A DNA stretch of 64,000 bases, from assembly GCA_965116025.1 (NCBI GenBank), contig OZ220480.1, forward strand, positions 1,920,001-1,984,000, given 5' to 3'. The notes under the pieces are model-generated. The model was not told where the DNA came from and searched no databases. It was given only the letters and a program-made list of their open reading frames with translations. Shown here piece after piece: positions 13,032-36,685 of the stretch; the stretch's first letter is position 1; each line of letters starts with the position of its first letter. This DNA comes from an uncultured candidatus Porisulfidus sp. GTDB taxonomy: Bacteria; Pseudomonadota; Gammaproteobacteria; Poriferisulfidales; Poriferisulfidaceae. The translations under genes were made by a program, and so were the position numbers.

Positions 13032-14624
13032 CTACGAGCGCGGCATGGACGGAAATAAGCCAGCCTGCCGTTCCCCGCGGGACCGCGCCGCCTCTGGCAA
13101 AAGTTCGGTGATCGCCTTCGCCGAAACGTTTCCCAGTTCCCTCGGCTCCAGCTTGCGCAACCCACCGCCATACACGCGACCCTCGTCCAGCAAGGCCCGT
13201 GGGTGGATCCGATTCAGGAAATCCCAGATCTGCCGCGTCAGTTCCGGCCGTCCTCGCAAAGCGCGCCGGATCGGCTCCTTCGGATACAGCATCAGGTACA
13301 CGTTCGCGGCCGTCGCCCTTGAATGGTTCAATATGAACCGAAAGGGCCGGCCGGACTTCTTGTCGCCGCGACCCAGATACGTGCAGACGATCGGAGCCGG
13401 CGGGCGATCTTCCTGCGCGTACCATCGCGCGCGACGCCGGCAAAGATAACCGTCGGCGACGCCGTTCGCCTTCCCCTCCCTCAAATAAATCCACAAATTC
13501 GGGTAACGCTCCCGGATCTCTCCCTCCGCCCATGGAGGATCGAGCAGAAACAGGCGGCGCTCAAGCACGGGATTTCCATCTCGATCTCCCATGACCTCGT
13601 CGACCGGCACATGCCGAGGACTCGGGAGGATCGGCCGAAACGCGGCCATCGGCAACTCGCGGCGCTCGATTTCCCGATCCGACAAGATAAAGTATCCGTT
13701 TCCGCCCGTGACCAGCCCTCTCTTGATCTGAAAGAAGTCTCCAAGCACCGGCCCGCCGACCGCCTCACGTCGCTCCCCCATCGGATAGCGCGTCCACTTC
13801 GATTCTTGGCGCAACCACTCCGTTGGAATTCTTCGATCCACCTTCGCCCGCTCCAACGTTCCCCCATAAGAGAATCGAGTCTCGTATCTCGCTCGCGGAC
13901 ATTCCTTGCGGAACCAAACCATGGCCGACGACACCAACGCGTCATCGAATTGCGCGTCTTTCGGATCAAAGCGATGAATATGAAGGAGCGTGACTCTGTC
14001 AAGCAAATACCGCTTCAGCGGAGCGCCGTAATTCACGTCCATGAATTCGCTCGGAATCAACCAACCCGCCAGCCCGCCATCAGCCATCCACGCATGACTC
14101 AAGGCCAGAAAATAGCAATACAGCCCGGCCAGCCCACCAACCCGCGCGCCGCGAGCCTCCCGCGCGCGTCCTCAACCGGTGTTTCTCGAACGATGGAATA
14201 TGGTGATGCCGCACATAGGGCGGATTGCATATCAATAAGTTGAATCTCCCGATGACATCCGGCGCCTCGGCTTTCGTGAAATCCTCCAAACGAACTTCCA
14301 GCCCCATTCCGCTCCAGAGGCGCGCTGCCGGCTCACCGTAACGCGAGTCGATCTCATACCCTACGGCGGCATCGACGCGTGAGCGCGGAAAGACGTTCAG
14401 CAACGCCGAATAGAACGCTCCCGTTCCAACCGCCGGGTCCAAGAAACGCGTCCTCTCGTCCTTTTTCCGAGGCGCGCTTTCGCGTAACGCAACATTGCGA
14501 CCGCCAAAGCTGTCGGAGTCGCGAATTGCCCCATCCGATTTCGCGCGCCCGAATCTTTTTGGGCATCAAGCCCCCGTTGCAGATCAATTCGCTCCGCTTC
14601 CAGTTCCGCGACATCTCTCCTCAT
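13032..14624 (-). pseudogene. Orphan N6-adenine DNA methyltransferase (Eco57I/XamI-like), split by two frameshifts
   Basis: Three consecutive frames carry GQFATP, (FL)DPAVGTG, NPPYVRHH and GLAGLYCYF/IPSEFMDVNYG; breaks at the A5 run (14462-14466) and the (CG)4 run (14161-14168); no adjacent endonuclease. Confidence 0.85.
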
Positions 14625-19030: not shown

Positions 19031-20770
19031 TCACGACCGGAACAGCCGATATTCGACCAACGCGGACTGGCCGATTATCTCGATGATCGTGACCGAGAGA
19101 TCTGTCCCATAAGAGTCAATCAGCCGCAACGGCTTGCCTAACCGAAACGGCACGGGCTGCCGCCGACCCTCGTCTATGGTGATATTGTCCACGTACAAAT
19201 ACGTGCGATCAAGCGAATCGCGTATTGGATTCAGCCTTCCTCGCAAGCCGGGTAGATTCCCGGAACCTTGAGCGAAAATAGTCGCGCCACCCGATTCGAG
19301 CGGCTCGAGATTAAGCGGCAATCTACCCCGGTCCGGGGTCCACTCCCGCTCAATCCCCGCGGCATACCCTAGCCCGGCGGCGTAGATCGTCATCGGCAAA
19401 TGCGTAGCGTATAGGTTCAGAGTCGCTTCACCAGACTCGTCAGTAACCGCCCGCACCCACGTCTTGTTGGGAAAGAGCGCGAGAACATCAATGCCTGCCA
19501 AAGGCTCGCCTCCAGAACGCGCCACGACTGTCGCGTCCGTCGAAACGAACTCCAATTGGGCGGAGGGAATGCGCAACATCAGATTCGATTCGTCGATCAC
19601 CTCATATACCGGTAGCGCACCGGTGGCTTCCCATGTTCGCTTGCGAATAATCTGCACGCCAGCACCTCGGCAATCCATCAGATATTTTCGATGCTCCGAC
19701 CTTGGCGCGTTGCCCACGGGAATGCGGCCGAACACGGAAGCGAGCGCTTCATTACGGGTTGCTTGGCTGAATTCCATGCCTTCAATAGTGATACCGTTCG
19801 GCAACCGCCCCGGCGAATCGATCTCCAGACGATCCTCGAACATGGACAGCCTAATTCGCCGCGATGATATGGAATAGTCGCGATGCACGACTGCGTTGAC
19901 GATAGCCTCGAAGACAGCGGTTTCGCTGTACTGCGGGATGTTTTCCCGCGCTGGCATCTTGCGCGCCGCGACTCGCATGTTGCGGACGACGAACCGCATG
20001 GCGTCCGCGATCTGGAGTGGCAACGGACCCACGATTTCCCGCGCGTCCAATTGCCCCGAAGCCCGATCCAGTCCGCGATAGCAGGTCGCCATGATGGTCG
20101 CTTGTGGCAACCAGTCCTGAGGCGAGGAAGAGCAAAGCAACACCCCGGCGACGGTCGCGCGTTCCACGCCAGCCTCATCCTGCGCCAGAAGGCGGAGATT
20201 CATCAGACCGTGCCGTGGATTGGTGGACTCATCCACACTGAGTAGCGACTCCCACAGTCGCTCACTGAGCGTCCCAAATCCAGTGTCGGGCACGATCTGC
20301 TTATCGAATCGCAGATAGCGGCTCTGCGCACGGTCTCGCGTTAACCTCAGGCACTCCTCCCTATGCAGGCGGCACTTGGTCGCGCCCACGCGGATGAACG
20401 CTCGCCCACTCCGCTCGTGAAGGGTCCCGCCGCGTGGCGCTTCAACAAGCAAAAACGCCTTGCCATCAAGCTCACGGTGGTAGGTATCAATGCGTAACGG
20501 TGGCTCTATGGCATCGGTACTCGCTTCCATCAAAAGGCGGTCAAGAGCTACCATCTGCTCCCGCGACATTCCCTGAATCGTTCCGTCATCAGCCACCCCA
20601 CATAGCATCACGCCACCGCTCGCGTTGGTGAAAGCACCCAGCTCATCCGCCAAATCGTCTAGATGTGGACTGGTCGGACTGTCGCCACTGAACTTGATTT
20701 GCTTGAATTCCCAGCGGCTGTCCTCACCCAAGCGAAGTTGTCGACGGATGTCGTCGTCTTGGATCATCAC
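19031..20770 (-). CDS. Schlafen/AlbA_2 domain protein with HATPase_c_4 (RecG-C-like) region and an unassigned beta-rich C-terminal domain
   Basis: GEDSRWEFK, AFTNASGGVMLCGVADDG; EAIVNAVVHRDY...DRLEIDSPG; start may be 20767-20803. Confidence 0.85.
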   Translation of the reverse strand: MMIQDDDIRRQLRLGEDSRWEFKQIKFSGDSPTSPHLDDLADELGAFTNASGGVMLCGVADDGTIQGMSREQMVALDRLLMEASTDAIEPPLRIDTYHRELDGKAFLLVEAPRGGTLHERSGRAFIRVGATKCRLHREECLRLTRDRAQSRYLRFDKQIVPDTGFGTLSERLWESLLSVDESTNPRHGLMNLRLLAQDEAGVERATVAGVLLCSSSPQDWLPQATIMATCYRGLDRASGQLDAREIVGPLPLQIADAMRFVVRNMRVAARKMPARENIPQYSETAVFEAIVNAVVHRDYSISSRRIRLSMFEDRLEIDSPGRLPNGITIEGMEFSQATRNEALASVFGRIPVGNAPRSEHRKYLMDCRGAGVQIIRKRTWEATGALPVYEVIDESNLMLRIPSAQLEFVSTDATVVARSGGEPLAGIDVLALFPNKTWVRAVTDESGEATLNLYATHLPMTIYAAGLGYAAGIEREWTPDRGRLPLNLEPLESGGATIFAQGSGNLPGLRGRLNPIRDSLDRTYLYVDNITIDEGRRQPVPFRLGKPLRLIDSYGTDLSVTIIEIIGQSALVEYRLFRS

Positions 20771-20875
20771 GCCACTACCCGGTGTGAAAGATTCATGTTG
20801 CAAGCGCGAGCCTCGCCGAACGAGAGATCGGGAAGGAGCGTCGTTCGGGAAAGGAAGCGAGATTTTTGCTGGTGC

Positions 20876-21292
20876 TCATCGCCATGCTCTACAGCTCATA
20901 GTCCCGTATAGGATAATGACACTGTCAATGAAATTCGTTGCGACACCCAAACACGCCTTCAGCCTCTCTTCGTCGTAATCGCGCGGTACGTTGGTCCGAG
21001 CGTCAGCGTATCGCAACCAATGCTCCAGCGGCACTGATAGCTACTGATTCTCATGCGCGATACGAAACACGGGCTTTGAGCTGTTGGGCAGGTCAGCAGA
21101 GCCGAGGCACTCGGCCAGATGGAGCTTCAACGCCTTCCACAAGCAGTCATAGCAGATTTTGAAGCACCGGATGATGGATTCAGCGATTCCCTCGCGATCC
21201 AAGTCGGAGAGCACCGAACTTTCGCGCCGATGGTTAGCGTACTGCTTCTCCAAGCACTTCAGGGCCAACTCAAATTTCCCACAGTCGATCAT
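20876..21292 (-). pseudogene. HEPN nucleotidyltransferase substrate-binding protein (HI0074-like), with an internal stop
   Basis: ESIIRCFKICYDCLWKALK...SSKPVFRIAHENQ*LSVPLEHWLRYADARTNVPRDY; in-frame TAG at 21041-21043; RxxxxH degenerate to RTNVPR. Confidence 0.75.
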
Positions 21293-21636
21293 AAGAATCG
21301 ACTTCTAAGCGCAACAATATATTCAGCACAAAACCGACATCTTGATGACCCCACCTGTATCCGACTCCTTTCCAAGCCGCACTTCGGGGGGTGTCACGCA
21401 TCCCTTGCCAGAATCGCGCCTCTGCATCACCGCCAAGAAATCGGACTGGTTCAGCGAGAATCATGCTCTGGTCATCCATTCCAGAAACTCAAGATATCGA
21501 GATTCTCGATCACCGAATCCAGCGGGACCGCTCGCTCTACTACCTACGAAACTGCGTGATCGGGCTCTTCGCCTTGTCCTCTATGAGAAACCGCATTACG
21601 ACTCGGACAGCAGTCGGCCAGCGTAGGAACAGCCAT

Positions 21637-22245
21637 TCACGAATTCGTCCGTCTCATAGGCCTGCGTAGATCATACTCGCAGTTGGCACGGTTGCGAAAG
21701 GCGGCCTCAATCAGAAACTTGAGCGCTCCTCCCTGGTTTATTCTTTCCCATGGAGCAACCGAAATTTTGACATCCTGTTCCATAAAATTATCGATGATTC
21801 GGTCAGGCATATACGGATATCGACGCTCGTATTCCGCTCGCTCCTCGACGTGCATCCACTCATCAACATCCGGGTACAGCAGCTCCTTCTCTTCATTCCC
21901 ATGGGGCGCGTGGAAGCGGCCAGGAGATATTCCCGGAAGATTGATAACGACTATCCCCGACTTCTTATTCACCGAACCGTCGTACATGCTCGAGTGAATT
22001 TCCCAATCGACATGCTTTCGGCGTTTAGTCTCTCTGCCGACTAACACTATGGTCACGGTCGAGTCCTTGAGATATTCGTCACGAATAGCGCGGCGTATTC
22101 GCTCGTCGCTCCAATCACTCGGGATGTCGCCAGTGTCGACGGACCGATCTACAAAAACTGAATGCTCTTTTCCAAATTCGACCAGATCTTCCTTGTATTT
22201 CTGATCGTCGCGGTGATGGTAACTAATGAATACCTTATGCATCAT
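21637..22245 (-). CDS. ThsB-like TIR domain protein (MTH538/DUF1863)
   Basis: MHKVFISYHH...IRDEYLKDSTVTIVLVGRETKRRKHVDWEI (catalytic Glu present). Confidence 0.9.
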   Translation of the reverse strand: MMHKVFISYHHRDDQKYKEDLVEFGKEHSVFVDRSVDTGDIPSDWSDERIRRAIRDEYLKDSTVTIVLVGRETKRRKHVDWEIHSSMYDGSVNKKSGIVVINLPGISPGRFHAPHGNEEKELLYPDVDEWMHVEERAEYERRYPYMPDRIIDNFMEQDVKISVAPWERINQGGALKFLIEAAFRNRANCEYDLRRPMRRTNS

Positions 22246-23062
22246 GCCCTCCATTAGCAAGAGCGTTGCGTAGCCCCCGTGAAATGAGAGCCACGGCTTC
22301 CTGAATATGAGGAGTGCGGGCCAAAATAGCGTTCTCGTCGCGAGACAATCCGTTGTGCAGGTCGTCTGGCGAATATTTTTGGAAACGATCCCGACCAACC
22401 CATCCATTACGCGAACCGGCCCAGCGCTCGGCGATGCCAACTGTCTCCGCGATATCACGCGCGCACCCTCCGAATCCCCCTATGAGGAACACAGGCTGAC
22501 CTGCTTCAAGAGACAAATATGCCTCCTCGGCGATGCCGGGCATCACCCCTTTGTAGCCCTCGATTCTGCCGCCGAGCATGATTCGCGCCTGAATGTCCTC
22601 GCGCATGGTGGTTCGCATCGATGTAAGTCCTACCGTCCACTCATCTTCATCCGGCTCATGTGGTCGTAACGTCAGCCGTTGCTTTTGCGCGAGACGCGTA
22701 CCATCCAGCGCAAGGAAGACGATATGACTGCAGGGCTCATGTTCAGCAGAGGACGCGACAATCTCGTCCGGCGTCATGCGGATATGCACCGGCCAAGCCA
22801 AATAGTCAGTTACGGAGACTTCCCCACGATGTCGAGGATGATTCTGATAACGCCCCACCAACTCGGCTATAAGCTCCGTGAATCCATGTTGCTGCAGGTC
22901 TCCACCGTAGGCTAGGCTTCTTCCCGACGCGAGTATCTGGAGAGCGATCTCGGCCATCGCGTCATGCAGATGCCGGTCGCTCAACCCCAAGGACCACAAA
23001 TCCGGACTCTCTGAAACCGAGACCCCGACGGTATTCAATCTCTCGATATTTGGTGTGGTCAT
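22235..23062 (-). CDS. SLOG-superfamily protein (cluster-2-like)
   Basis: VGVSVSES...LAYGGDL...ARIMLGGRIEGYKGVMPGIAEEA...PVFLIGGFGGCA. Confidence 0.85.
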   Translation of the reverse strand: MTTPNIERLNTVGVSVSESPDLWSLGLSDRHLHDAMAEIALQILASGRSLAYGGDLQQHGFTELIAELVGRYQNHPRHRGEVSVTDYLAWPVHIRMTPDEIVASSAEHEPCSHIVFLALDGTRLAQKQRLTLRPHEPDEDEWTVGLTSMRTTMREDIQARIMLGGRIEGYKGVMPGIAEEAYLSLEAGQPVFLIGGFGGCARDIAETVGIAERWAGSRNGWVGRDRFQKYSPDDLHNGLSRDENAILARTPHIQEAVALISRGLRNALANGGHDA

Positions 23063-24225
23063 GAGCGTTTCTCCAGCCAATCCGCCAACGTCCTCACACG
23101 AACATCCGGCGCAATCTCTCTGAACAGCCGTTCTTCATCCGCGCTCAACAGTGGTTCAGGATAAACGATTGTCGGGGTCGACTCTCCATCGCAAGAAGGC
23201 AATGCCGCCAATGCGATCAACTCCGGGGGCCGGGCCGTAAACACAACCCCCGACGAATCCGCCAAATGGCATCCTACCTGACAGAGCCATAGCCATGTGC
23301 GGAAGACCTCGTCCAAGAGATAGCTCACAACGATGGAGATCTTGTCCATCTGGTCGGGGTCCATGCGTACGACCGGCACATTGCCGAGATAGGCCATTCC
23401 CCTTGGATCGATATCCCGCACACAATCGACCACGACCATCGGCACCAATCGTCGCTTCGCCTCAATAATCTCGCGCCGGCACCACTCGCGCGACGAGTAT
23501 GAAGCGGAATGCACCGCCACGACAGCCCCAGCATCAATCTGATGCAGAAGAACATCCCCGAATGGCAACCCCGGTGGAATGTCGTGGATGTCAAAGAAGC
23601 TATCGAGCGGGCTGTGTTCATAGATCCAGTCGCGAATGCGATTTCCCACCGATTCGCCATCTCCGTCATGTTTCGAGTGGCTAATAAAGACCTGTATCTT
23701 TTCCAAATATCTTTCATACGCCACACTTCCACCCTCGACGCTTTGATGCGCATCTATGCGATGTCGCAACATGCGACAAAATTCGTGGGTCAGTTCCAGC
23801 ATGAGACGCTGAGATCGCCCCATATCAGTTCCATCCCAGCAATTCCAACGCAGAGCTTGTTGCTCAAAATTTGCTTCGACACCCCGGTCATCCATCGTCA
23901 CGGGGAAGAAGCCAGCGGGAATGCCTTTATCGCGCGCATCCCGCGCGATCCCATGCACATATTCAACCCAAGCTGGATCATCAACAAGCGTCGCTTCCGT
24001 CAAAACAACGACAGCGGTGAGATCCGCATCGTTCCAATTGATCGATGAAGGAGTGCGCTCGTCCTGAATCGGCACGCTAAGTCCGAAGACGTTGATACCA
24101 TGCGGCGCGCCAATGGACATGCTGGAATCGCGTCCAAAGCGTTCGTGAAATTGCTTCGCGATTTCACGGCCTCCCGTGTACGAGGGATGCCATATCACGT
24201 ACAACGAGAAGAGTGGGCGCGCCAT
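23059..24225 (-). CDS. Long TIR-domain protein
   Basis: VFISHSKHDG...FFDIHDIPPG...SYSSREWCRREIIEAK; ATGA overlap with the SLOG gene. Confidence 0.88.
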   Translation of the reverse strand: MARPLFSLYVIWHPSYTGGREIAKQFHERFGRDSSMSIGAPHGINVFGLSVPIQDERTPSSINWNDADLTAVVVLTEATLVDDPAWVEYVHGIARDARDKGIPAGFFPVTMDDRGVEANFEQQALRWNCWDGTDMGRSQRLMLELTHEFCRMLRHRIDAHQSVEGGSVAYERYLEKIQVFISHSKHDGDGESVGNRIRDWIYEHSPLDSFFDIHDIPPGLPFGDVLLHQIDAGAVVAVHSASYSSREWCRREIIEAKRRLVPMVVVDCVRDIDPRGMAYLGNVPVVRMDPDQMDKISIVVSYLLDEVFRTWLWLCQVGCHLADSSGVVFTARPPELIALAALPSCDGESTPTIVYPEPLLSADEERLFREIAPDVRVRTLADWLEKRS

Positions 24226-24591
24226 TGATTCTTTGGTCCGCCGAATCAATGTCTCGACAGATCTCCCGGCAAGCGATGTTTCCCGGCATCAGAGTTAGGA
24301 AGCGAAAAACCATCACCTCCGCTATAGTCTTGGTCGGTCGAGCACAACCACACGAAGCAAATCTCCTTCCACCGTCGATCCATAATCACCACAACGCCTC
24401 ATATTCAGATGCCAAACCGTGCGCCCATTATAAAGTGTCCGCCTATCGACGGTCTCTTTCGACGATATTGAAGAGCAGGGAATTATGTAGGTAACTTGAC
24501 AAGACGGATTGTAATCCACCTACTACTTGACAAGAGATGTAATGAACATATGATATATCGTAACTTGAATATGAAAGTTATGGAGAGAGCG

Positions 24592-25524
24592 ATGTCGAGG
24601 AGAATCGCGAAGACCCTCGGGCTGTTCGACCTGATGAAGATGTATCCGACTGAGACGGACGCCGTTCGATACCTGGAATCCCTCCGATGGGGCGAGAAGC
24701 CGCGTTGCGTCCATTGCGGCGCGACCGACAAGATCACCGCCCAGAAGAAAGCGGGCGATTACTGGTGCGGCTGGTGTCGCCACTACTTCACGGTGCGATC
24801 CGACACCCCGCTGGAGCGATGCAAGATCGACCTGCGCAAGTTCATCTACGCGGCCTATCTGCTGATGACCTCCCGCAAGGGGATCAGTAGCCTGCAGCTG
24901 AGCAAGGAGCTGTCCGTGCAGCAGCGCACCGCCTGGTATATCCTGCATCGTCTGCGCGTGGCCTGCGGCGGCAAGCTGGAGCCCCTGCGCGGGACCGTGG
25001 AGGTGGACGAGGTCTATCTCGGAGGGCGGGAAGCCAACAAGCACGAGAGCCGGAAGGCGCATGGCGGGCATTTCGCCGAGAAGCAGATCGTGCTGGGGAT
25101 GCGCGAGCGAGGCGGGCGCGCGGTCGCCTTGCCGATCGAGCGCGCCGACAAGCCCACCCTGCAAGGGGCCGTCCACCGGCATGTCCAGCCGGGAACCACG
25201 ATCTGCACGGACGAGAACCCCTCCTACCATGGCGTCGCTCGCCGGCATCGCGCAGTGAACCACAGCGCGAAGGAATACGTCAATGGCATGGCGCATACGA
25301 ACGGGATCGAATCGGTCTGGGCGGTGCTCAAGCGCGGCTTCGACGGCGTCTACCACAACTGGTCGAGAAAGCATTGCCGCCAATACGTCAACGAGTTCAT
25401 GTTCCGTCTCAACGAGGGGAACTGCGAGCGCGACACCCAGGACCGCCTGGACGATCTGTTCCGGGCCATGATGGGCAAGACGATCACGTACGAGGATCTC
25501 ACCGCGTCCGGGGAAGGCTGGTAG
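24592..25524 (+). CDS. IS1595-family (ISXO2-like) DDE transposase
   Basis: CVHC/CGWC zinc ribbon, GISSLQLSKEL, VEVDEVYLGG, TDE, HTNGIESVW; RBS GGAG upstream. Confidence 0.95.
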   Translation: MSRRIAKTLGLFDLMKMYPTETDAVRYLESLRWGEKPRCVHCGATDKITAQKKAGDYWCGWCRHYFTVRSDTPLERCKIDLRKFIYAAYLLMTSRKGISSLQLSKELSVQQRTAWYILHRLRVACGGKLEPLRGTVEVDEVYLGGREANKHESRKAHGGHFAEKQIVLGMRERGGRAVALPIERADKPTLQGAVHRHVQPGTTICTDENPSYHGVARRHRAVNHSAKEYVNGMAHTNGIESVWAVLKRGFDGVYHNWSRKHCRQYVNEFMFRLNEGNCERDTQDRLDDLFRAMMGKTITYEDLTASGEGW

Positions 25525-25533
25525 CGGGAGCCG

Positions 25534-25689
25534 ATGAACCTTCGAGCGTTGGCCCGGGCCATCCGCGCGCTGATCCGAATGCGCTCGGTGCCCTACGTCC
25601 GCCCGCCGGAGCCGACCAGGAAAGACTTGGAGAGAAAGTTCCTGATGCGCGTCGATAGGAAGGGAAAGCCGACCATCAAGGAAGTCTGA
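25534..25689 (+). CDS. 51-aa basic passenger ORF inside the IS
   Basis: GGGAG RBS then MNLRALARAIRALIRMRSVPYVRPPEPTRKDLERKFLMRVDRKGKPTIKEV*, filling the gap between the transposase stop and the right IR. Confidence 0.55.
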   Translation: MNLRALARAIRALIRMRSVPYVRPPEPTRKDLERKFLMRVDRKGKPTIKEV

Positions 25690-25810
25690 AGCCCGGCTTT
25701 GTCAAGTTACCTACATAATTCCCGAAGAGCACATTAGTTTGGAAATCAGGGTATTATGAGGCGAGCAATTTCATAATCACGTGAGGCTTTAAAGTCCCAC
25801 AGGTGGACAC

Positions 25811-28800
25811 ATGAGCGAGCAAACCCCGATACGTCCTGGACAGATTTTGGTCGGCATCCTGTTTAACCAGCCGATGCGAGTCGAGACCGTGCATGCGAAT
25901 GGAGCTAACTCTTGGAGTGTGGGTCTGGTCGGTACGCATACGGGACAATTTCGTCGCGTTGTCCTTACCGATGATGCCATCAAGAAGATATCCATCATTG
26001 ATGGATCCAACCACTCATACGATGGCGATGGCCACGTTCTTCGGCTCGGCTTGAAAGCTTGCGCGCTCGGGATCGCCCATGAATTTGATCCTTATTTCGG
26101 CCTTTCGATATCCCGAGTGGATCCACTCCCGCATCAACTCGAAGCAGTCTACGAACACATGCTCAAACTGTCTACAGTTCGGTTTCTGCTTGCCGACGAT
26201 GCTGGTGCAGGCAAGACGATTATGGCGGGTCTACTGGTGCGCGAGCTCAGATTACGTGGACTCGCGGAACGCATTCTAATCGTCTGCCCCGCAAACCTAA
26301 CGTTCCAATGGCAACGTGAACTGAGCGAGAAATTCGACGAGAAGTTCCTCGTGCTCAAAGGTGGAGACATCCGTGATCAATTTGGTGTCAACCAGTGGTT
26401 GGAGCAACAGCGTATCATCACTTCGCTCGACCTCGCAAAACGTACCGATATCCTTCCCGGACTACAGCAAGTGCATTGGGATCTCGTCATCGTTGATGAA
26501 GCGCATCGCATGTCTTGGTCGCCACCAGCCAGAAAGACGGCGCGCTATTCGCTCGGCGAGTTGCTACGCGACAGCACCGACCACATCCTTCTACTAACCG
26601 CCACGCCACACAAAGGCGACCCGGAGAATTTTGCGCGGTTCTTGCAGCTCATCGACCGTGACGCTTATGCTGATGTCAAGTCGATTCATGAGGCCATAAA
26701 CCATCGTCGGGCGCCATTCTACCTACGGCGCACCAAAGAGGCGATGTTCTACTTTCCAGAGCGCCAAACCGACGGCGAATGGAAGGCGCGCCCAGTGTTC
26801 ACGAAGCGCATCCCCCGCACAGTCGGATTCATGATTGATGAGGATGAATGGGAACTGTATTTAGAGATCACCCGATTCGTGAAGCGGCAGAGTGCAAATG
26901 CTGCCGCCCAAAGAGACGATCCTCGCGCACGAGCTGTCGGTTTCCTGATGGTGCTCTACCAAAGACGCCTTGCCTCCAGTGTTTTCGCGATGCGGCACTC
27001 GCTTGAGAACCGGGCCAAACGCCTTGAAAAAAGATTGCAGCGCGCTCAGTTTGTGGCAAAGAACGCACCACCAAGCCTTCCCGATCCTGAGGAGATCGAT
27101 GAGATGGAAGATGATGAGCGGGAACGCTTTGAAGAACTGCTTGATGCGGTCACTTTAGCCGATAACGCCGAGCAAGTGCGCGACGAAATTTTGGAACTGA
27201 GACAGTTTGCGGACAGAGCCAAGGCGATCGAAAACTCTGGCAAGGAGGCGAAGCTCACCAAGCTCAAAGACATACTACAGAGTGAAGGCTTCTTCGACCT
27301 TCCCGGTCAACGCTTGCTCCTGTTCACCGAATTTAAGGATACGCTCAACTGCCTTGTAGACCATCTCAAAACTTGGGGATTTACGGTCGGCTATATTCAC
27401 GGCGGCATGAAGCCTGGTTCGCGTGACGAGCCGGGCACTCGGCTTCACGCGGAACAGCAGTTCCGGGAAGGAAAAACCCAAGTATTGGTCGCCACAGAGG
27501 CGGCAGGCGAAGGTATTAATCTGCAGTGTTGCCATATTCTCTTCAACTACGATATCCCATGGAATCCAAACCGGCTTGAACAGCGCATGGGCCGGATCCA
27601 CCGGTACGGGCAAAATCATGACTGCCTAATCTTCAACTTCGTCGCGACCAATACTATCGAAGGGCGTGTCCTCAAACGTCTGATGGACAAGCTTCAGGAA
27701 ATCAGGGACGCGCTGGATGACGACGTGGTATTCAACGTGATTGGTGAAATCCTGCCCGCCACGCAAATCGAACGTGTATTGCGAGACTACTATGCGGGCA
27801 GGCTGGATGAGGCCAATTTGGAAAACCACATGCTGGAGGGCGTAGACGAAGATCGTTTCCGGGCCATTTGCCAGACCGCGCTCGAAGGCCTCGCATCAAA
27901 GAAGCTTAACCTCGAGATGCTCATCGAGCGACGCGCCAAAGCAAGAGAGCAACGCGTCGTACCGGAGAGCATCGCCCGGTTCATGGTAGATTGCGCCAAG
28001 GATGCGTCGCTGGCCCTCAAATCTGTGCCGAAGCTTGCCCATACGTTCGACCCTGGGCGAACACCGCCCGTCCTGAAGAAACACGAACGAGGCGCGGACT
28101 GGAAGCTCCCACAAATCGCGGCGCGCTATCCCCGTTTGTCGACGGACCGTGAAACGGCAGATCAAAACCATCTGGAATGGATCACACCCGGTCACCCTCT
28201 GTTCGAAGCGTTACGCCTCCACGCTCTTGAAACTGCAAAAAACGTCTTTACTCAAGGGGCATGCTTCCACTCTCTGGCCCATGAGGCACCGACGCGACTC
28301 GACGTATACCGGGCGAAAGTCGTAGACGGATTGGGGCATACTGTTCATGAGCGGCTTTTCGCCGTTGAGTTGCGCGAAGACGGCGAACCGCAACGACGAG
28401 AACCCGGACTGCTTAGCGATCTCACCCCCGCTGCTCCACCAGATAATATCCCATCCGTAGCACATCTTCCAGAGGCCACCGATTGGCTTATGGAAACCAT
28501 GTTGGAACCATTCCTTGAAAAGGTTCAGTCGGAACGTTCGGCTGAGATCGAACGTATCACCAAGCATGTGGAACTGTCGCTTACCGAGGTACTGCAGCGG
28601 ATCGACGTAGAGATTGGCCACGCCGCCGAAGAGGCGAAAAAAGGAAGTGCCGGAGCCAAGGGTCGTCTCACCCAAGCAGAAGCACGTCACGGCGAAGTAC
28701 TGGAGCGGCGCAACCGCCGCAACGAGGAGCTTGAACGGGAGCAAAACGTAACGCTGCAGGAAGTCGAAAGACTAACAAGTTTGCTGATCCTACCTCACCC

Positions 28801-29215
28801 CGAGCGCAGCGCTCCCGAAGTCAAGCGATTGCGGCCAAACCCCGAAACTGAGATGAAGGCGATGCGCGTCGTCATGGACCATGAAAACGCGCGAGGATGC
28901 CAAGTCTACGATGTGCACGAGAAAAATCTTGGTTACGACGTGACGAGCCTCGACCTGCAGTCTGGCGAGCTACGCCTGATCGAGGTGAAAGGGCTTGCCG
29001 CAACAACCGGCAATATCCTGCTTACTCCGAACGAGTTTCGAGTGGCCGAGGACCGCCGAGATTGCTACTGGCTCTATATCGTGACCGGTTGCGCGAGTGC
29101 CCTGAAGCTCAAACTTATCAAGAACCCTGCCCGTCTTCAATGGCGCGACATAACTAAGGTGCAACACTACTGGCTTGCAGTCGACACGTTGCATGCTACT
29201 GGAAGTGACCAGTGA
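25811..29215 (+). CDS. SNF2-family helicase with C-terminal DUF3883 (PD-(D/E)xK-like) nuclease
   Basis: LLADDAGAGKT, DEAH, LLTATPH, QRMGRIHRYGQ; GYDVTS...RLIEVKG. Confidence 0.93.
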   Translation: MSEQTPIRPGQILVGILFNQPMRVETVHANGANSWSVGLVGTHTGQFRRVVLTDDAIKKISIIDGSNHSYDGDGHVLRLGLKACALGIAHEFDPYFGLSISRVDPLPHQLEAVYEHMLKLSTVRFLLADDAGAGKTIMAGLLVRELRLRGLAERILIVCPANLTFQWQRELSEKFDEKFLVLKGGDIRDQFGVNQWLEQQRIITSLDLAKRTDILPGLQQVHWDLVIVDEAHRMSWSPPARKTARYSLGELLRDSTDHILLLTATPHKGDPENFARFLQLIDRDAYADVKSIHEAINHRRAPFYLRRTKEAMFYFPERQTDGEWKARPVFTKRIPRTVGFMIDEDEWELYLEITRFVKRQSANAAAQRDDPRARAVGFLMVLYQRRLASSVFAMRHSLENRAKRLEKRLQRAQFVAKNAPPSLPDPEEIDEMEDDERERFEELLDAVTLADNAEQVRDEILELRQFADRAKAIENSGKEAKLTKLKDILQSEGFFDLPGQRLLLFTEFKDTLNCLVDHLKTWGFTVGYIHGGMKPGSRDEPGTRLHAEQQFREGKTQVLVATEAAGEGINLQCCHILFNYDIPWNPNRLEQRMGRIHRYGQNHDCLIFNFVATNTIEGRVLKRLMDKLQEIRDALDDDVVFNVIGEILPATQIERVLRDYYAGRLDEANLENHMLEGVDEDRFRAICQTALEGLASKKLNLEMLIERRAKAREQRVVPESIARFMVDCAKDASLALKSVPKLAHTFDPGRTPPVLKKHERGADWKLPQIAARYPRLSTDRETADQNHLEWITPGHPLFEALRLHALETAKNVFTQGACFHSLAHEAPTRLDVYRAKVVDGLGHTVHERLFAVELREDGEPQRREPGLLSDLTPAAPPDNIPSVAHLPEATDWLMETMLEPFLEKVQSERSAEIERITKHVELSLTEVLQRIDVEIGHAAEEAKKGSAGAKGRLTQAEARHGEVLERRNRRNEELEREQNVTLQEVERLTSLLILPHPERSAPEVKRLRPNPETEMKAMRVVMDHENARGCQVYDVHEKNLGYDVTSLDLQSGELRLIEVKGLAATTGNILLTPNEFRVAEDRRDCYWLYIVTGCASALKLKLIKNPARLQWRDITKVQHYWLAVDTLHATGSDQ

Positions 29216-29598
29216 CTCAAAAGATTAAACATCTGGAACTCATTCAATGCGTGATCAATCGTCTTGCCGCCAACTCGTTCCGCATCAAAGGATGGGCCGT
29301 CATCCTTGTTTCGGCACTTCTCGTTCTGCTCGTCCGGGAAGGCCGGACCGATCTCGCCTGGATCGGTCTCGTCCCGGTATTCGTCTTCTGGGGGCTCGAC
29401 GGCTACTTCTTGTGGCAGGAGAGATCATTCCGTAGCCTTTATGACCATGTCCGTGTGTTACAAGACGACCATGTAGATTTCTCTATGGACACATCGGCGT
29501 TTCGCCAATTCTGGCTCAATACGGTATTTTCAGTCACCCTATGGCCCTTTTACGTTGCATTGGCCATTTCGATCTCAGCCGCTCTCTTGCTCAAATAA
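29212..29598 (+). CDS. Small ~3-TM membrane protein, putative TIR-linked effector
   Basis: KIKHLELIQCVINRLAANSFRIKGW...FWGLDGYFLWQERSFRSLYDHVR; three hydrophobic segments; GTGA overlap with the helicase stop. Confidence 0.8.
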   Translation: MTQKIKHLELIQCVINRLAANSFRIKGWAVILVSALLVLLVREGRTDLAWIGLVPVFVFWGLDGYFLWQERSFRSLYDHVRVLQDDHVDFSMDTSAFRQFWLNTVFSVTLWPFYVALAISISAALLLK

Positions 29599-29621
29599 TC
29601 AATTACATGGAGACACCTAAG

Positions 29622-30119
29622 ATGAAGCGAAAAGTGTTTTACAGTTTTCACTACGAAAAAGATAGTTGGCGTGCAGCTATGGTGCGTAACATCGGAGCTA
29701 TAGACGGAAATGCGCCAGCCACCGACAACGATTGGGAATCAGTAAAGAAAGGAGGAGATTGGGCGATCAAGAGATGGATCGCAAAACAGATGGAAGGCCG
29801 AACATGCTGCGTCGTCCTAGTGGGGACACATACCGCCAATCGCAAGTGGATCAATCACGAAATCATCAAATCGTGGAACAAAGGCATGGGGCTGGTTGGA
29901 ATACATATTCACGGTTTGAAGGACTGTGACGGGTGCGCATCATCAAGAGGGAGTAATCCATTTGACTTTATCACTTACAGAGATCAGTGCCGAACTTTGT
30001 CGTCCACCGCGAAGTGCTACGACCCACCAGGCAGGAATAGCCGCGAACGCTATGACTGGATCGCTATGCACATATCAAACGCAGTTGAGGAGGCCATTCG
30101 GATTCGTAATGCATGGTAA
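29622..30119 (+). CDS. ThsB-like TIR domain protein (MTH538/DUF1863)
   Basis: MKRKVFYSFHYEKDSWRA...VVLVGTHTANRKWINHEIIKSW; GGAG upstream. Confidence 0.92.
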   Translation: MKRKVFYSFHYEKDSWRAAMVRNIGAIDGNAPATDNDWESVKKGGDWAIKRWIAKQMEGRTCCVVLVGTHTANRKWINHEIIKSWNKGMGLVGIHIHGLKDCDGCASSRGSNPFDFITYRDQCRTLSSTAKCYDPPGRNSRERYDWIAMHISNAVEEAIRIRNAW

Positions 30120-30152
30120 TCTCGCCGTCCTGTCATCTGGCGAAATGTGCAG

Positions 30153-33100
30153 ATGATTCCCCAGCAGTGCAAGCGCCTAGCGGAGGTGGACTTCCCGATC
30201 GCTGCAGTATCGCGCCATGCGGCACGCGAAAAATCTATTCGCCACGGCCACCCATCGACGTTACATCTCTGGTGGGCACGACGACCACTCGCCTCGTCAC
30301 GGGCAGTACTACTGGGGCTTTTACTACCCGACCCCTGCGACCCTCATTGTCCAGAGGCATTCAAGAAAGAAGCACGTAAAATATTACCAACGGTTGGATG
30401 TCGGCGTGTGAAATCTGACCAAGCCATACGCTATAGCCTTCTGAAATTCATCGCCGACTTCGCTAACTGGGATAACAGCGCAGAACAGATTTATCTTGAT
30501 GCGGGCCGGTCTCTTGTAAGAGCCGCTCATGGGCAGGCTCCACCATTGGTAGTTGATCCGTTTGCGGGAGGTGGATCAATCCCCCTAGAAGCATTGCGGC
30601 TTGGTTGCGATGCGTTCGCAAGTGACCTCAATCCGGTAGCCTGTCTAATTCTCAAGGTTATGTTGGAGGATATCCCGCGTCATGGTCCGGATCTAGCCAA
30701 TGATCTGTGTGCGATAGGTGCTGAAATCAAACAGCAAGCCAAACAGGAGTTGTCAGATCTCTACCCCAATGATACGGACGGTGCAACCCCGATAGCATAT
30801 CTCTGGGCGCGCACGGTAAGTTGCGAAGCACCGGATTGCGGTGCTGAGATTCCGCTGATGCGTTCGTTCTGGCTGTGCAGGAAGACAAAACGTAAGCGAG
30901 CACTACGATTTTCCATCAAACGAAATAAAGGTACTCCACCCCAAGTGACGTTTGATGTGTTCGAACCCAAGACCGATGGCGACGTACATGCAGGCACCGT
31001 GACTCGCGCCAAAGCAACATGCTTGTGTTGCGGCACAGTCCTACCACCTGAACGGGTACGCACGCAGCTCGCTACCGAGCGCGGTGGTGCAGATGTGATT
31101 TTCGATGAGGAAGGCAAACGTATCGGTGGAGCACGAATGACAGCAGTAGTGACGCTTCGACCACACGAAGCGGGCCGCCATTACCGCTTACCGACAGATG
31201 CGGACTATGCAGCAGTGCGTAAGGCGCAAGCACGAGTCGCAAAAATACTGGGAAAGTGGGAGCGTGGTGGTAGGCAGGGGCTATGCCCAGTGCCAAATGA
31301 ACCTTTACCACCAATCGGGACACTAGGATTTCGAGTTCAGCGCTACGGCATGCTCAAGTGGGGCGATCTGTTTACCGCACGGCAGAAGATTGCACTGGTG
31401 GAACTGACAAATCTAATTCGACAGGCTGGTAGCAAATCCGAAATTGGACTTATCTCTGCCGCAATCAGCCGATGTGCAACCCACTGGTCGTCTGGAACAA
31501 TGTGGATACAGGACCTCGAAGCTGTAGCAAATATATTTGGCCGACAAGCATTACCTATCGTTTGGGATTTTGCAGAAGCATGCGGTTTCGGCGACGGTGG
31601 AGCGACTTTAGATGGACAAGTTAGCTGGATTGCCAAAGTGGCGGGGCAACTTCCCATTCGAAAAGCAGCAAACATACAAGCTTCAGATGCCGCTGACTAC
31701 CCACTCCCGGATCAAAGCGCAACTATCTGGTTTACGGATCCACCTTATTACGATGCCGTTCCGTATGCCGACTTATCCGATTTTTTTATGGTTTGGCTAA
31801 AGCGCGGTCTGCCCAATCACCCTCTCTTGCGTGACCCCTACGATCCAAACAACCCTCTTACGCCCAAGGACCGTGAAGCAGTACAGGACGAAACAAAGAA
31901 AAATGATGGTCGCTCCAAAGATCGTTCATGGTTCGAGGAAACTATGGCGAAAGCGTTCACCGAGGGAAGGCGCGTTCTTACCAAGGATGGTGTTGGTTCT
32001 GTCGTATTCGCCCACAAGACCACCGAAGGATGGGAAGCACTGCTCTCGGGCATGATCCAAGGCGGCTGGACCATCACAGGTTCTTGGCCAATTGCGACCG
32101 AACGAGCTGCCCGAATGCGTGCCCATGACTCGGCTGCCCTCGCTACCAGTATCCACCTCATTTGCCGCCCGCGCTCGAGTGATGCTCTAGTCGGTGAATG
32201 GGCTGAAGTGCTTCGCGAACTTCCCTTACGGGTTTCCAAATGGATGGATCGACTTCAAGGGGAAGGTGTTCGTGGAGCAGACCTTGTCTTCGCATGTATC
32301 GGGCCTGCAATTGAGATTTTCAGTCGCTACCAGACTGTCGAGACCGCGGACGGTCGGAGTGTCGGCCTCCCAGAATATTTAGAGAAAGTCTGGGAAGTCG
32401 TAGGGCGTGCAGCACTTGAACAAGTGCTTGGCGTGACTGAAGCTACCGCCCGCAGCGGCATGGCTGGCGCGCTGGAGGAAGATGCTCGCTTGACCGCCTT
32501 GTTTCTATGGACTCTCCAGAGTACTGAAGAATTTCGAATGGGGAATGATCGAGAGGGTTCCGTTGCCAGCCATCCAGCGGTAACCGAAAATGCTACGCCT
32601 AAGGAGTTAGATGGAAAAGATGAAGAAGCCGTCACCAAAGCAACAATGAAAGGGTTTCACCTTCCCTTTGACGTAGTACGGCGTTTCTCTCAACCCATGG
32701 GCATTGATCTCGAACGTTGGACCGGAAGGATTATTAGCCAAGAAAAAGGCATTGTGTGGTTGCTTCCGATCACGGAACGGGTGAAATCACTCTTCGGAGA
32801 CGAAGGTTCCGCAAGTGTTGCCGAATGGGTCGATAACCACCCGGCCGACGATACGCAAGCGGTCCTCTTTCCCGACCTTGATATACCTGCCTCGCCGGGA
32901 CATCAACCAAGCAGAAATGCACAAGATACCGACCCTATTCTGCAATCATCTGATGCCACAATACTTGACCGAATCCACGCTGCCATGTTGTTGCAAGTAG
33001 GCGGTTATGCAAATGCCTTGCGGACGTTGATCTTCCAAGAACAGGAACGAGGACCAGATTTCTTGCATCTCGCAAACGCGCTTTCCGCGCTCTACCCACG

Positions 33101-33155
33101 CGGTAGCCGCGAGAAAAGAATCTTGGATGCCATGCTTCTAGCCGTACCAAAGTGA
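30153..33155 (+). CDS. DUF1156 amino-DNA methyltransferase with Zn ribbon
   Basis: STLHLWWARRPLA, DPFAGGGSIPLEA, CEAPDC/CLCC, TDPPYYD. Confidence 0.93.
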   Translation: MIPQQCKRLAEVDFPIAAVSRHAAREKSIRHGHPSTLHLWWARRPLASSRAVLLGLLLPDPCDPHCPEAFKKEARKILPTVGCRRVKSDQAIRYSLLKFIADFANWDNSAEQIYLDAGRSLVRAAHGQAPPLVVDPFAGGGSIPLEALRLGCDAFASDLNPVACLILKVMLEDIPRHGPDLANDLCAIGAEIKQQAKQELSDLYPNDTDGATPIAYLWARTVSCEAPDCGAEIPLMRSFWLCRKTKRKRALRFSIKRNKGTPPQVTFDVFEPKTDGDVHAGTVTRAKATCLCCGTVLPPERVRTQLATERGGADVIFDEEGKRIGGARMTAVVTLRPHEAGRHYRLPTDADYAAVRKAQARVAKILGKWERGGRQGLCPVPNEPLPPIGTLGFRVQRYGMLKWGDLFTARQKIALVELTNLIRQAGSKSEIGLISAAISRCATHWSSGTMWIQDLEAVANIFGRQALPIVWDFAEACGFGDGGATLDGQVSWIAKVAGQLPIRKAANIQASDAADYPLPDQSATIWFTDPPYYDAVPYADLSDFFMVWLKRGLPNHPLLRDPYDPNNPLTPKDREAVQDETKKNDGRSKDRSWFEETMAKAFTEGRRVLTKDGVGSVVFAHKTTEGWEALLSGMIQGGWTITGSWPIATERAARMRAHDSAALATSIHLICRPRSSDALVGEWAEVLRELPLRVSKWMDRLQGEGVRGADLVFACIGPAIEIFSRYQTVETADGRSVGLPEYLEKVWEVVGRAALEQVLGVTEATARSGMAGALEEDARLTALFLWTLQSTEEFRMGNDREGSVASHPAVTENATPKELDGKDEEAVTKATMKGFHLPFDVVRRFSQPMGIDLERWTGRIISQEKGIVWLLPITERVKSLFGDEGSASVAEWVDNHPADDTQAVLFPDLDIPASPGHQPSRNAQDTDPILQSSDATILDRIHAAMLLQVGGYANALRTLIFQEQERGPDFLHLANALSALYPRGSREKRILDAMLLAVPK

Positions 33156-33292
33156 CATCATGGAATCGAAAGCACGTCCGAAGGACAGAAAATCCTTGAA
33201 TCTCTCTGGCTGGCAAGTCTTCCCTCGAACTAGCCATTTTCCGCTACAGGTTTTACAATCTCACTCACGTTTTGAAACGCAAGGAGAACAAC

Positions 33293-33550
33293 ATGACGGA
33301 AGAAACCGAACTGCTGAGGCGAATCACTGTCCGGCCCGATATCTTTGGCGGCAAGCCGATCATACGCAATATGCGAATCGCGGTGGAACATGTCTTGGCC
33401 AATCTAGCGGCAGGAGAAACGGTTGAGGACCTGCTAGAAAACTATCCATTCCTTGAGCAGGAAGATATCCAAGCATGCTTGCTCTTCGCTCACCGCTCAT
33501 TAGCTGGAGAACATGTACATGACCGCATCATCGATCAAAGAACTTCGTGA
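33293..33550 (+). CDS. DUF433 antitoxin (VapB45-like)
   Basis: ITVRPDIFGGKPIIRNMRIAV...DLLENYPFLEQEDIQACL; AAGGAG RBS. Confidence 0.92.
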   Translation: MTEETELLRRITVRPDIFGGKPIIRNMRIAVEHVLANLAAGETVEDLLENYPFLEQEDIQACLLFAHRSLAGEHVHDRIIDQRTS

Positions 33551-33924
33551 AATTTCTCCTCGATATTTGCGCCACATCGCAAGTACTACGTTCATGCTTG
33601 GTAGAACTTGGGCATGATGTCTTATCCGCACGAGACTGTTTTTCCCATGCATCAGACGAAGCGTTACTGGAATTCGCCTGCAGGGAAAGTCATGTGCTCA
33701 TTACCGAGGACAAGGATTTCGGTGAGCTTGTCTTTCTGCATGGCTTGCCTCATCCATCTATTGTGCGGCTTGTCGGGATGACTCCGACAGAAAGGGCGGA
33801 TGCTATGCGAAATCTGATTGAGTGCCATGCGGATGCCATACGCAAGAGCTCAATAATCGTGGTGACCAGAAAATGCGTGCGGATACGGTCGGCAAGAAAC
33901 CTTGGGAGCGTCAACAATGGCTAG
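33547..33924 (+). CDS. DUF5615 PIN-like toxin (VapC45-like)
   Basis: MKFLLD...GHDV...SDEALL...VLITEDKDFGEL; GTGA overlap with the antitoxin. Confidence 0.9.
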   Translation: MKFLLDICATSQVLRSCLVELGHDVLSARDCFSHASDEALLEFACRESHVLITEDKDFGELVFLHGLPHPSIVRLVGMTPTERADAMRNLIECHADAIRKSSIIVVTRKCVRIRSARNLGSVNNG

Positions 33925-36685
33925 GAGCCCTTGGTACAAAGTCGTTACGCCGCGATCAGAAGTGCGGGAAGGTCGCTCATTCAGCCCAGACGAGTTCGCG
34001 ATTGCCCTTGAGCAGGTGGTCGCGGGAACCGCCCCCTTGGATTACCGTGACCCTGCGCAATTCTTCTCGCGAACATGTTTTACTCGCGCCTTCAAGGAAC
34101 ATGCTGGTATGGTGCTTCGCCGTCTTGCAGGCGAGACGCAAAACACGTCCCCGGTGCTTACCCTCGTTACCCAGTTTGGCGGAGGAAAGACCCACACGCT
34201 CACTGCGCTCCACCATCTCGCCAATGCCGGCTCACGGGCCAAAAGCCTGCCCGGCGTATCTGATCTCCTGGCTGAAGCGGGAATCTCCAAGCCACCTGAT
34301 GCGCGAGTTGGTGTCTTCGTAGGTAATGCGTGGGACCCCACCGAAGGGCGTGAAACACCATGGATTGACCTAGCCTACCAAATAGCTGGTAACAGAGGTG
34401 TCGCCGCGCTTGGATCGACCGCAAAAACAACTCCACCTGGAACCGAGTCGCTCGCCCGGGTCTTCGCTGCCGTGGATGCTCCCGTACTGCTGCTGTTTGA
34501 CGAGGTTCTGAACTTCGTTAACCGGCATCGGGACAAGGCTGAAAGCTTCCATGCCTTCATACAGAACCTGGCGGTCGCCGTCACCGGAACCACTGAGACG
34601 GTCACCGTCATAAGCCTGCCACGAAGTCAGGTGGAGATGACCGATTGGGATCAGCAATGGCAAGATCGGATCACAAAAGTAGTGAGGCGCGTCGCGCGTG
34701 ACCTCATCGCCAACGATGAAGCCGAAATTGGCGATGTCGTTCGCCGGCGCCTGTTTGAGAACCTCGGCGATGAGAAAATTCGAAAACAAGTCTCAAAAAT
34801 CTATGCTGATTGGTGTTTTGAACGAACTGCTCGGCTTCCCTCTGAATGGATGGCGACCGACAGTGCCCCGCCGGAAACCAAAGCGCGGGAGTTTCTGATG
34901 GGCCGTTTCGAAGCTTGCTATCCTTTCCATCCCTCGACTCTCTCAGTTTTCCGAAGAAAATGGAGTGCGCTCGCGCAATTCCAGCAAACCCGTGGTACGC
35001 TTGCGATGCTTGCCCAATGGGTATCTTGGGCCGCACGCCAACAATTTCAGCAAGCCCGAACGGAACAGCTGATCACGCTCGGGTCGGCACCACTGCATGT
35101 GCCCGAGTTTCGCGCTGTCGTGCTTGGGCAACTAGGTGAGCAACGGTTGGATGTGGCCATAGCCGCCGACCTAGCGAGTCCCACGGCGCATGCCCGAGCT
35201 CTAGATATCGATACTCGGGGACCAATCAGGGACATACATCAGCGGGTGGGAGCGGCCATTCTCTTCGAGTCTTCTGGAGGACAAGTAGACAAAGTGGCTC
35301 ACTTGCCCGAACTGCGTTTCGCCCTTGGTGAACCCGAAATCGAAACCACAACCATTGATAACGCTGCGGGGGCATTAGAAGCATCAGGGTTCTTCATCCG
35401 CAAAGTCGGAACGGATGGTTTCCGCATCCACCATCAAGCGACCTTGAAAAAAGTTGTTAACGACCGTCGTGCCACGCTTGACGAAGAAACAGAAATTCGG
35501 CCTGTAATTCGTAAATTAGTGGAAGAGGAATTCACCCGAGGTGCCAATCTTCCGGTTATACCCTTCCCTGATGACGGCGCAACTATCCAAGATGCGCCAC
35601 GTCTGATACTGGTCCTCGTCGACCCAGAAGCGGAATGGGAACTCGGTGGGAAAACAGCAAAAAAAATCGAACGATGGACCAAAGAGAGAGGAACTTCGCC
35701 AAGGCTGCATCCTGCGTCCTTGGTCTGGTGTGCCAAAAAACCAGGGCGGGAACTCAAGAATCGCGTCGAGATGTGGCTTGCTTGGCGACGAGTCTCTTTG
35801 GATGTCGCGGAAGGTGTGCTCGGGACGGAATTTGGTCGCGCTGATCAAAACGAATTGCAGTCCAAAGTCAGAGATGCCGAAAATGCCGCGAGAGACGAAG
35901 TATGGGCCAGCTATCGATTCGTCGCTCTCGCCGATGCCAGAGCCGAATCCGGACTTAAAATGATTGATCTTGGAGCCGGGCATAGTAGCGCGAGTGAAAC
36001 ACTCTGCGGAAGGGTGTTAACCGCGCTCAAGACCGAAGCCCTGCTAAGTGAAACCATCGGTGCTGGTTACCTCGACCGGCATTGGCCACCAGCATTCAAG
36101 GAGACCGGCGCTTGGCCACTAACCAGCCTGCGGCAAAGCTTTCTCAACGGCTCCCTGACTCGGCTCATTGATCCCGATACCGCCCTGCGGCAAAAGATCG
36201 TTGAATTCGTCGAGAAAGGAGATTTTGGGCTCGCTTCGGGAACACTGGCAAGCAGCCAATACGAACATCTATGGTACATGGAGCCAGTCGAGGCTGAGGA
36301 GGTCGCTTTCGAGAAAAATGTCTTCCTGTTAACCAAAGCACGAAGCGAGGAATTGCGAATGCCAGTAGCACCAGAGCCAAAGCCATATTCTGTAACGCCA
36401 CCACCGTCCACACCTGATCCTGGCAGCGTGGATGAATTCGAATCAGAGACTAACATGTCTGATGAGCCTGTTCAATTACGTGTGCATGGAACCATACCCC
36501 CAGAACTGTGGAATCGCCTCGGCACAACGGTCATTCCAAAACTCCGCTCCGGTGATGAGCTGAAAACGCAAGTAGAAGTCAGCGTCAAAGTTGCCGCGCC
36601 CATGGCGGCAGCCTTACAGACGGATATCCAGCAAACCCTGACCGAGTTAAATCTTGATGGCCAAGTAAGTGTTGAGTGCTCTTGA
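33917..36685 (+). CDS. DUF499 AAA+ ATPase
   Basis: FFSRTCFT, TQFGGGKTH Walker A, LLLFDEV Walker B, YPFHP, FQQTRG. Confidence 0.92.
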   Translation: MARSPWYKVVTPRSEVREGRSFSPDEFAIALEQVVAGTAPLDYRDPAQFFSRTCFTRAFKEHAGMVLRRLAGETQNTSPVLTLVTQFGGGKTHTLTALHHLANAGSRAKSLPGVSDLLAEAGISKPPDARVGVFVGNAWDPTEGRETPWIDLAYQIAGNRGVAALGSTAKTTPPGTESLARVFAAVDAPVLLLFDEVLNFVNRHRDKAESFHAFIQNLAVAVTGTTETVTVISLPRSQVEMTDWDQQWQDRITKVVRRVARDLIANDEAEIGDVVRRRLFENLGDEKIRKQVSKIYADWCFERTARLPSEWMATDSAPPETKAREFLMGRFEACYPFHPSTLSVFRRKWSALAQFQQTRGTLAMLAQWVSWAARQQFQQARTEQLITLGSAPLHVPEFRAVVLGQLGEQRLDVAIAADLASPTAHARALDIDTRGPIRDIHQRVGAAILFESSGGQVDKVAHLPELRFALGEPEIETTTIDNAAGALEASGFFIRKVGTDGFRIHHQATLKKVVNDRRATLDEETEIRPVIRKLVEEEFTRGANLPVIPFPDDGATIQDAPRLILVLVDPEAEWELGGKTAKKIERWTKERGTSPRLHPASLVWCAKKPGRELKNRVEMWLAWRRVSLDVAEGVLGTEFGRADQNELQSKVRDAENAARDEVWASYRFVALADARAESGLKMIDLGAGHSSASETLCGRVLTALKTEALLSETIGAGYLDRHWPPAFKETGAWPLTSLRQSFLNGSLTRLIDPDTALRQKIVEFVEKGDFGLASGTLASSQYEHLWYMEPVEAEEVAFEKNVFLLTKARSEELRMPVAPEPKPYSVTPPPSTPDPGSVDEFESETNMSDEPVQLRVHGTIPPELWNRLGTTVIPKLRSGDELKTQVEVSVKVAAPMAAALQTDIQQTLTELNLDGQVSVECS

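Follow-up and report, generated by a model that had tools for sequence, protein, structure and literature searches.

Gene content of the locus

The module described here consists of three overlapping genes, all intact, on the minus strand of the window (the whole analyzed stretch of 64,000 nucleotides from an uncultured candidatus Porisulfidus sp.). The first gene (23059-24225) encodes a long TIR protein of 388 aa, which matches PF13676 (TIR_2) at residues 179-274 with 38.9 bits and carries the motif SREWCRRE with E252. It is followed by the gene of a stand-alone SLOG protein of 275 aa (22235-23062), which scores 230.9 bits with PF18163 (LD_cluster2; cut-off 25.3), and by that of a short ThsB-type TIR protein of 202 aa (21637-22245), matching PF08937 (ThsB_TIR) with 76 bits and containing the motif HVDWE with E82. 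The long TIR and SLOG genes overlap by 4 nt, the SLOG and short TIR genes by 8-11 nt. Pfam matches, coordinates and overlaps thus confirm the trio of long TIR, SLOG and ThsB-like TIR genes recognized in the initial annotation. A promoter scan delivered 3 sites, with 3.3 expected, and none for the operon.

The initial annotation had also reported that no caspase, SIR2 or macrodomain gene lies in the island, and this holds for a wider range: profile searches of the whole genome gave no match to PF00656 (caspase) or PF13289 (SIR2), and the two Macro genes of the genome are both located far from the island. Together the three genes form a Thoeris-like module that is complete, has no classical effector and is related to type III Thoeris. 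Within it the short TIR is predicted to sense the phage and to produce the signal, and the SLOG to receive this signal as the partner protein of the long TIR.

The GC content of the island is 0.50-0.59; most of the 1-kb bins that flank it have about 0.61-0.70. Upstream of the module an element of the IS1595 family, which is not part of the system, occupies 24478-25723 on the plus strand (transposase 24496-25524) and is bounded by perfect terminal inverted repeats of 25 bp. Beyond it lies an Hma system on the plus strand (25811-36685; HmaA 25811-29215, HmaB 30147-33155, HmaC 33902-36685), which shares the island with a DUF433/DUF5615 pair. A PDC-M50 pair (29212-30119, plus strand) is inserted between HmaA and HmaB and represents the island's second Thoeris-like pair; it consists of a membrane protein (29212-29598) and a ThsB-like TIR (29541-30119), which PADLOC scores as adjacent PDC-M50A (150.1 bits) and PDC-M50B (207.6 bits). 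On the other side of the module a Schlafen gene with AlbA_2 and HATPase_c_4 domains (19031-20803, minus strand) is set apart from the operon by a decayed stretch of about 830 nt.

Structure of the SLOG and long TIR proteins

The structure model of the SLOG protein (pLDDT 84.7) has as its top fold match the SLOG domain of BcThsA with 3'cADPR (7uxs; Z 16.0, rmsd 3.2, 184 residues aligned), followed by LOG hydrolases (5ajt, Z 12.3), DprA and the N-termini of TRPM proteins; a shared fold alone shows no function. Invariant in the 29 aligned rows are R150, G164, G165, G176, E180, G198 and G199. A comparison of the SLOG profile with the sequences of solved structures gave nothing below E 0.25, and a search of 50,697 phage records gave no SLOG match.

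Fourteen longer homologues of the SLOG contain TIR_2 (8), patatin (3), AAA (2) or nothing further (1). Fusions of an LD_cluster2 SLOG to patatin are found at L050:5737-9345, where a long TIR adjoins the fusion, and at L103:3696-5312, where the fusion occurs together with three short TIRs directly 5' of a true ThcB4-ThcA pair. These fusions to a patatin phospholipase mean that the SLOG family can plausibly gate a toxic enzyme.

The long TIR is modeled (pLDDT 82.5) in three alpha/beta parts. The middle domain (residues about 175-315) is a TIR of the catalytic type with E252, and residues 173-312 retrieve the TIR folds of MAL (Z 13.7) and SARM1 (Z 13.5). The N-domain (residues about 1-160) appears as a degenerate TIR copy that lacks the catalytic glutamate: Glu is found at position 252 in 31 of 31 rows and at the matching N-domain position 90 in none of the 31. 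Its profile aligns in register to that of the TIR domain over 119 columns, if weakly (E 0.0015, probability only 16.7%). Because of this alignment and the missing Glu, the N-domain is likely a dead TIR copy. The C-domain (residues about 325-388) is a small alpha/beta domain without a profile match, the C-domain of ThcB4 included in the comparison. With the whole protein Foldseek delivered tandem-Rossmann matches only, at TM about 0.2-0.3. Outside its TIR the protein has no Pfam match, and no NucS-like nuclease domain was recognized; the fold search covered residues 173-312.

Having PF18163 above its cut-off and an adjoining double-TIR protein, the locus belongs to the LD_cluster2 TIR-SLOG family. 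Burroughs et al. in 2015 reportedly predicted by computation an LD_cluster2 SLOG with an active and an inactive TIR partner, which is exactly this pair. The Pfam text on PF18163 presumably describes the same arrangement, a SLOG with one active and one inactive TIR partner, in agreement with the anatomy of the long TIR.

Related loci

Related loci were drawn from genomes, plasmids, metagenomes and E. coli, and 82 were counted after removal of 7 near-duplicates; since these loci share a common descent, their counts cannot be taken as independent. Homologues at E ≤ 0.001 number 1570 for the SLOG and 1269 for the long TIR. Of 401 genomes sampled from the phylum, 6 contain PF18163 and 7 contain ThcB4. 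Among 15 other genomes of the genus one has a distant long TIR (29% identity) with a convergent short TIR that is 62% identical to that of the window.

Among the 69 loci for which 400 nt or more of upstream DNA is available, the long TIR and SLOG genes adjoin in 67, and in four loci (L005, L019, L020, L108) they are fused; the natural fused forms remove the question of whether the two proteins are paired. Where both flanks exceed 3 kb (34 loci), 30 loci have an additional TIR within 3 kb and four (L016, L108, L109 and L110) have none. The extra TIRs vary in subfamily, side and strand; they include several ThsB subfamilies, and some carry a fused WD40, pentapeptide, FGE or Sel1 domain. The constant long TIR-SLOG pair with its varying TIRs is the Thoeris pattern of a fixed effector and exchangeable sensors. 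An E. coli plasmid encodes a TIR 49% identical to the short TIR next to a membrane gene resembling TIR-IV-A, with no SLOG in the 8.6 kb covered, and this arrangement fits a portable signal maker.

The three loci closest to the module (L001-L003, SLOG identity 75-80%) have as common partners the three genes alone. The initial annotation had proposed to compare the neighborhoods of homologous TIR-SLOG pairs for a caspase versus other partners; a caspase was found in one of the 82 (L058), on the opposite strand. The screen consisted of Pfam scans of 179 selected ORFs, a motif search, which flagged nothing and missed the caspase of L058, and a single caspase query, and distant caspases in related loci could be missed for this reason. 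The locus in the window is an ordinary member of its family, and what is surprising about it lies in the family and not in the genome. The suggestion of a Thoeris variant stands as regards a Thoeris-like module without a classical effector; a local swap of the effector does not, the layout being usual for a large family.

A recurrent set of genes beside the core comprises a ThsB-TIR, Nmad2, MazG_C and a UDG-like gene, sometimes with HMUDK (L033:6865-9770, L029:1604-4651 and others); Nmad2 occurs in 18, MazG_C in 14 and UDG in 12 of the 82 loci. The set may serve to detect modified nucleotides of phages. A small gene 3' of the core at L109:4680-5201 clusters with L083:10962-11306, an ORF that resembles the soluble portion of TIR-IV-A (27%). 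At L004:3029-5799 Piwi and a gene that looks like SIR2 by eye, without a family match, stand directly 5' of a close three-gene homologue.

Comparison with known Thoeris types

Type III Thoeris consists of several TIRs and a SLOG protein, and according to the accessible part of 10.64898/2025.12.03.692087 it is alone among the classical types in having uncharacterized signaling and output. The accessible part of 10.64898/2026.01.22.701046 reports it as working without abortive infection and hypothesizes a NucS-like nuclease domain as its effector; the SLOG protein is termed the effector in passages of the citing literature. The module shares with type III (ThcA/ThsD SLOG and ThcB TIRs) the combination of several TIRs with a stand-alone SLOG and the order of long TIR, then SLOG. 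Profile comparison gives a probability of 93.6% for the SLOG against ThcA and of 97.5%, over 146 columns, for the long TIR against ThcB4, which identifies the long TIR as a probable remote paralogue of ThcB4. However, ThcA is an LD_cluster3 protein of about 190 aa, as were all four ThcA-type proteins scanned, whereas the SLOG of the module belongs to LD_cluster2 and has 275 aa. Identity is about 18%, and a quick tree, itself with long branches, has a long branch between the two groups of long TIRs. Membership in type III is ruled out by the scores of the two models: the ThcA model NF058525 (cut-off 110) gives no match to the SLOG at E ≤ 0.001, and the ThcB4 model NF058526 reaches 36.8 bits against a cut-off of 220, in the TIR part of the long TIR only. 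Because the profiles are related and the gene order is the same, yet the ThcA and ThcB4 models failed, the module is placed by its sequences as a sister clade of type III Thoeris, and not as a member by current models.

With type I Thoeris (ThsA SIR2-SLOG and ThsB) the module shares a ThsB-type TIR with catalytic Glu (PF08937, E82), a SLOG fold closest to that of ThsA and the proposed logic. It differs in that the SIR2 of ThsA is absent, the SLOG is not STALD and stands alone, and the role of NADase is proposed for a TIR, whose chain is separate or fused. Type IV had been described in the initial annotation as two TIRs, a SLOG protein and a protease that resembles caspases. This description does not agree with the accessible part of 10.1101/2024.10.24.620036, in which type IV is a two-gene operon of a TIR and a caspase with no SLOG; the module and type IV have a short signaling TIR in common and are set apart by the caspase, as the present genome is without PF00656. 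A further mark of type IV is its N7-cADPR signal.

Literature searches, which covered mainly papers outside subscription, found no experimental study of the LD_cluster2 TIR-SLOG family; Table S1 of 10.64898/2025.12.03.692087 may already list it.

The orthologous module of Escherichia coli

At least 16 listed records of E. coli show a chromosomal copy of the module. Primer pair 16+17 of Wang et al. 2024 (PMC11350192) maps to 4318-4338 and 7327-7347 of L092, the locus of E. coli strain AR_0114. The amplicon contains a ThsB, the long TIR (44% identical) and the SLOG (45%), and differs from the module of the window in its ThsB, which lies upstream, belongs to another subfamily and is 36% identical. 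Cluster 16/17 was not found among the named multi-gene systems in the covered parts of the paper, where the new systems consist of one or two proteins. Orthologous islands supplied six accession prefixes; five of them stand there in the TIR-IV rows only and one nowhere. These rows concern the two genes just upstream of the E. coli module, a membrane gene and a TIR. Identity with TIR-III, IV, VII or VIII is accordingly ruled out within the covered parts, and TIR-IV also differs by its membrane gene TIR-IV-A, to which the window has no match (tblastn with two TIR-IV-A proteins).

Since the new systems have one or two proteins and the accessions appear only under TIR-IV, the naming in the covered parts suggests that the three-gene clone was not active against 111 phages in that construct. 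The amplicon begins within the upstream gene TIR-IV-B, only 184 nt ahead of the first gene of the operon, and may therefore lack the promoter. With a large family, fused forms and an E. coli member whose clone may lack a promoter, the question of the mechanism is directly testable.

Proposed mechanism and alternatives

In the mechanism that we propose, the short ThsB TIR would sense the phage and make a cADPR-type signal, the SLOG would bind this signal and would then switch on the long TIR's catalytic TIR domain, and the activated long TIR would destroy NAD+, so that infection stops. The long TIR and the SLOG would then be one effector in two genes, the TIR counterpart of the type I SIR2-SLOG protein ThsA, and the dead N-terminal TIR copy might be a surface for assembly or docking. 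We give this route from a ThsB signal via the SLOG to the long TIR as NADase an even chance; the long TIR as NADase effector was also among the options of the initial annotation. The route is favored by the fixed pair with exchangeable TIRs, the natural fusions, the SLOG-patatin fusions, the ThsA-like fold and the invariant E252; defence, the signal, binding of the long TIR to the SLOG and NAD depletion are inferred. The four of 34 cores without a further TIR and the apparently inactive E. coli clone count against it.

Somewhat more tentatively, the family may represent a TIR-to-TIR cascade, in which exchangeable sensor TIRs pass a nucleotide signal to a SLOG receptor and on to a double-domain TIR enzyme with its dead copy as scaffold, the same SLOG being reused to gate patatin or AAA. 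If this is true, solving it would also supply the missing mechanism of type III Thoeris.

A different assignment of roles, which we regard as rather unlikely, makes the long TIR itself both sensor and source of the signal, and gives the SLOG the role of output, as a LOG-like nucleotide hydrolase or a signal processor; the phage would be starved without a collapse of NAD, and the short TIR would be an optional sensor. The two-gene cores without a further TIR fit these roles, as do the type III loci L104 and L106, which have ThcB4 and ThcA with no further TIR gene in their ORF lists, but the varied extra TIRs of the other 30 loci need a receptor. LOG hydrolases are among the fold matches of the SLOG, although the ThsA SLOG ranks above them (Z 16.0 versus 12.3). 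At L050 a long TIR is paired with SLOG-patatin, where patatin could act as output with the long TIR producing the signal, which speaks against the NADase; the SLOG-patatin fusions, on the other hand, imply a sensing and not a toxic role for the SLOG family. The non-abortive action of the type III sister and the naming of its SLOG as effector, in the sources as far as accessible, favor the SLOG as output over the long TIR as NADase.

Less probable still is that the long TIR and SLOG form a relay or amplifier, which would convert a weak TIR signal into more of it, or into a different one, for a neighboring membrane effector, here PDC-M50A (29212-29598) and elsewhere TIR-IV-A. The pair adjoins TIR-IV in E. 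coli and Priestia and the ThsB-Nmad2-MazG-UDG set in many loci, and a relay would account for the inactive three-gene clone deduced from the covered parts of Wang et al. The closest loci, L001-L003, nevertheless share no partner past the three genes, and the membrane gene of the window has no homologue in the 82 loci. The earlier proposal of this gene as effector of the module fails on the same count; it scores as PDC-M50A beside its own PDC-M50B TIR.

That the module is a remnant, having lost a caspase or another effector or being silenced by IS1595, we consider very improbable. The element starts 252 nt upstream of the long TIR gene and could affect expression, and in the covered parts of Wang et al. 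the clone of the E. coli orthologue seems not to have been rated active. The 8-bp target duplication of the element (24470-24477 and 25724-25731) is intact, however, and excision in silico leaves an empty spacer of about 330 nt between the long TIR and HmaA. An IS-free contig of the X2 run matches 21398-24469 with 101 differences, skips exactly 1254 nt and resumes at 25724, its match to the window ending at 25779; it holds no extra gene at the site, and its indels within the short TIR sum to three bases. The insertion of IS1595 is clean and no gene was deleted at the module. It is also recent, as judged from an identical second copy in the genome (G000:C1:12192-13437). The catalytic residues of the module are conserved. 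Loss of a caspase is rejected in view of the genome without PF00656, the single caspase among 82 loci, on the opposite strand, the intact duplication and the IS-free allele, and the reading as a partial system or deletion remnant is not supported. The Schlafen/AlbA_2 gene, on the same strand and in the same island, had been named as a further candidate effector, and we give it hardly any credence in view of 0 homologues in the 82 loci and the decayed sequence between it and the operon.

Two observations concern other parts of the window. The stretch 21041-21626, in which the X2 contig differs from the window, holds a decayed pair of the nucleotidyltransferase/HEPN type, with an 83-aa NTase_sub_bind fragment below the cut-off and broken upstream frames. 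A gene resembling a restriction methylase is split between two frames at 13032-14442 (weak Eco57I match), between genes that by a look at the sequence are hflX- and hflK-like.
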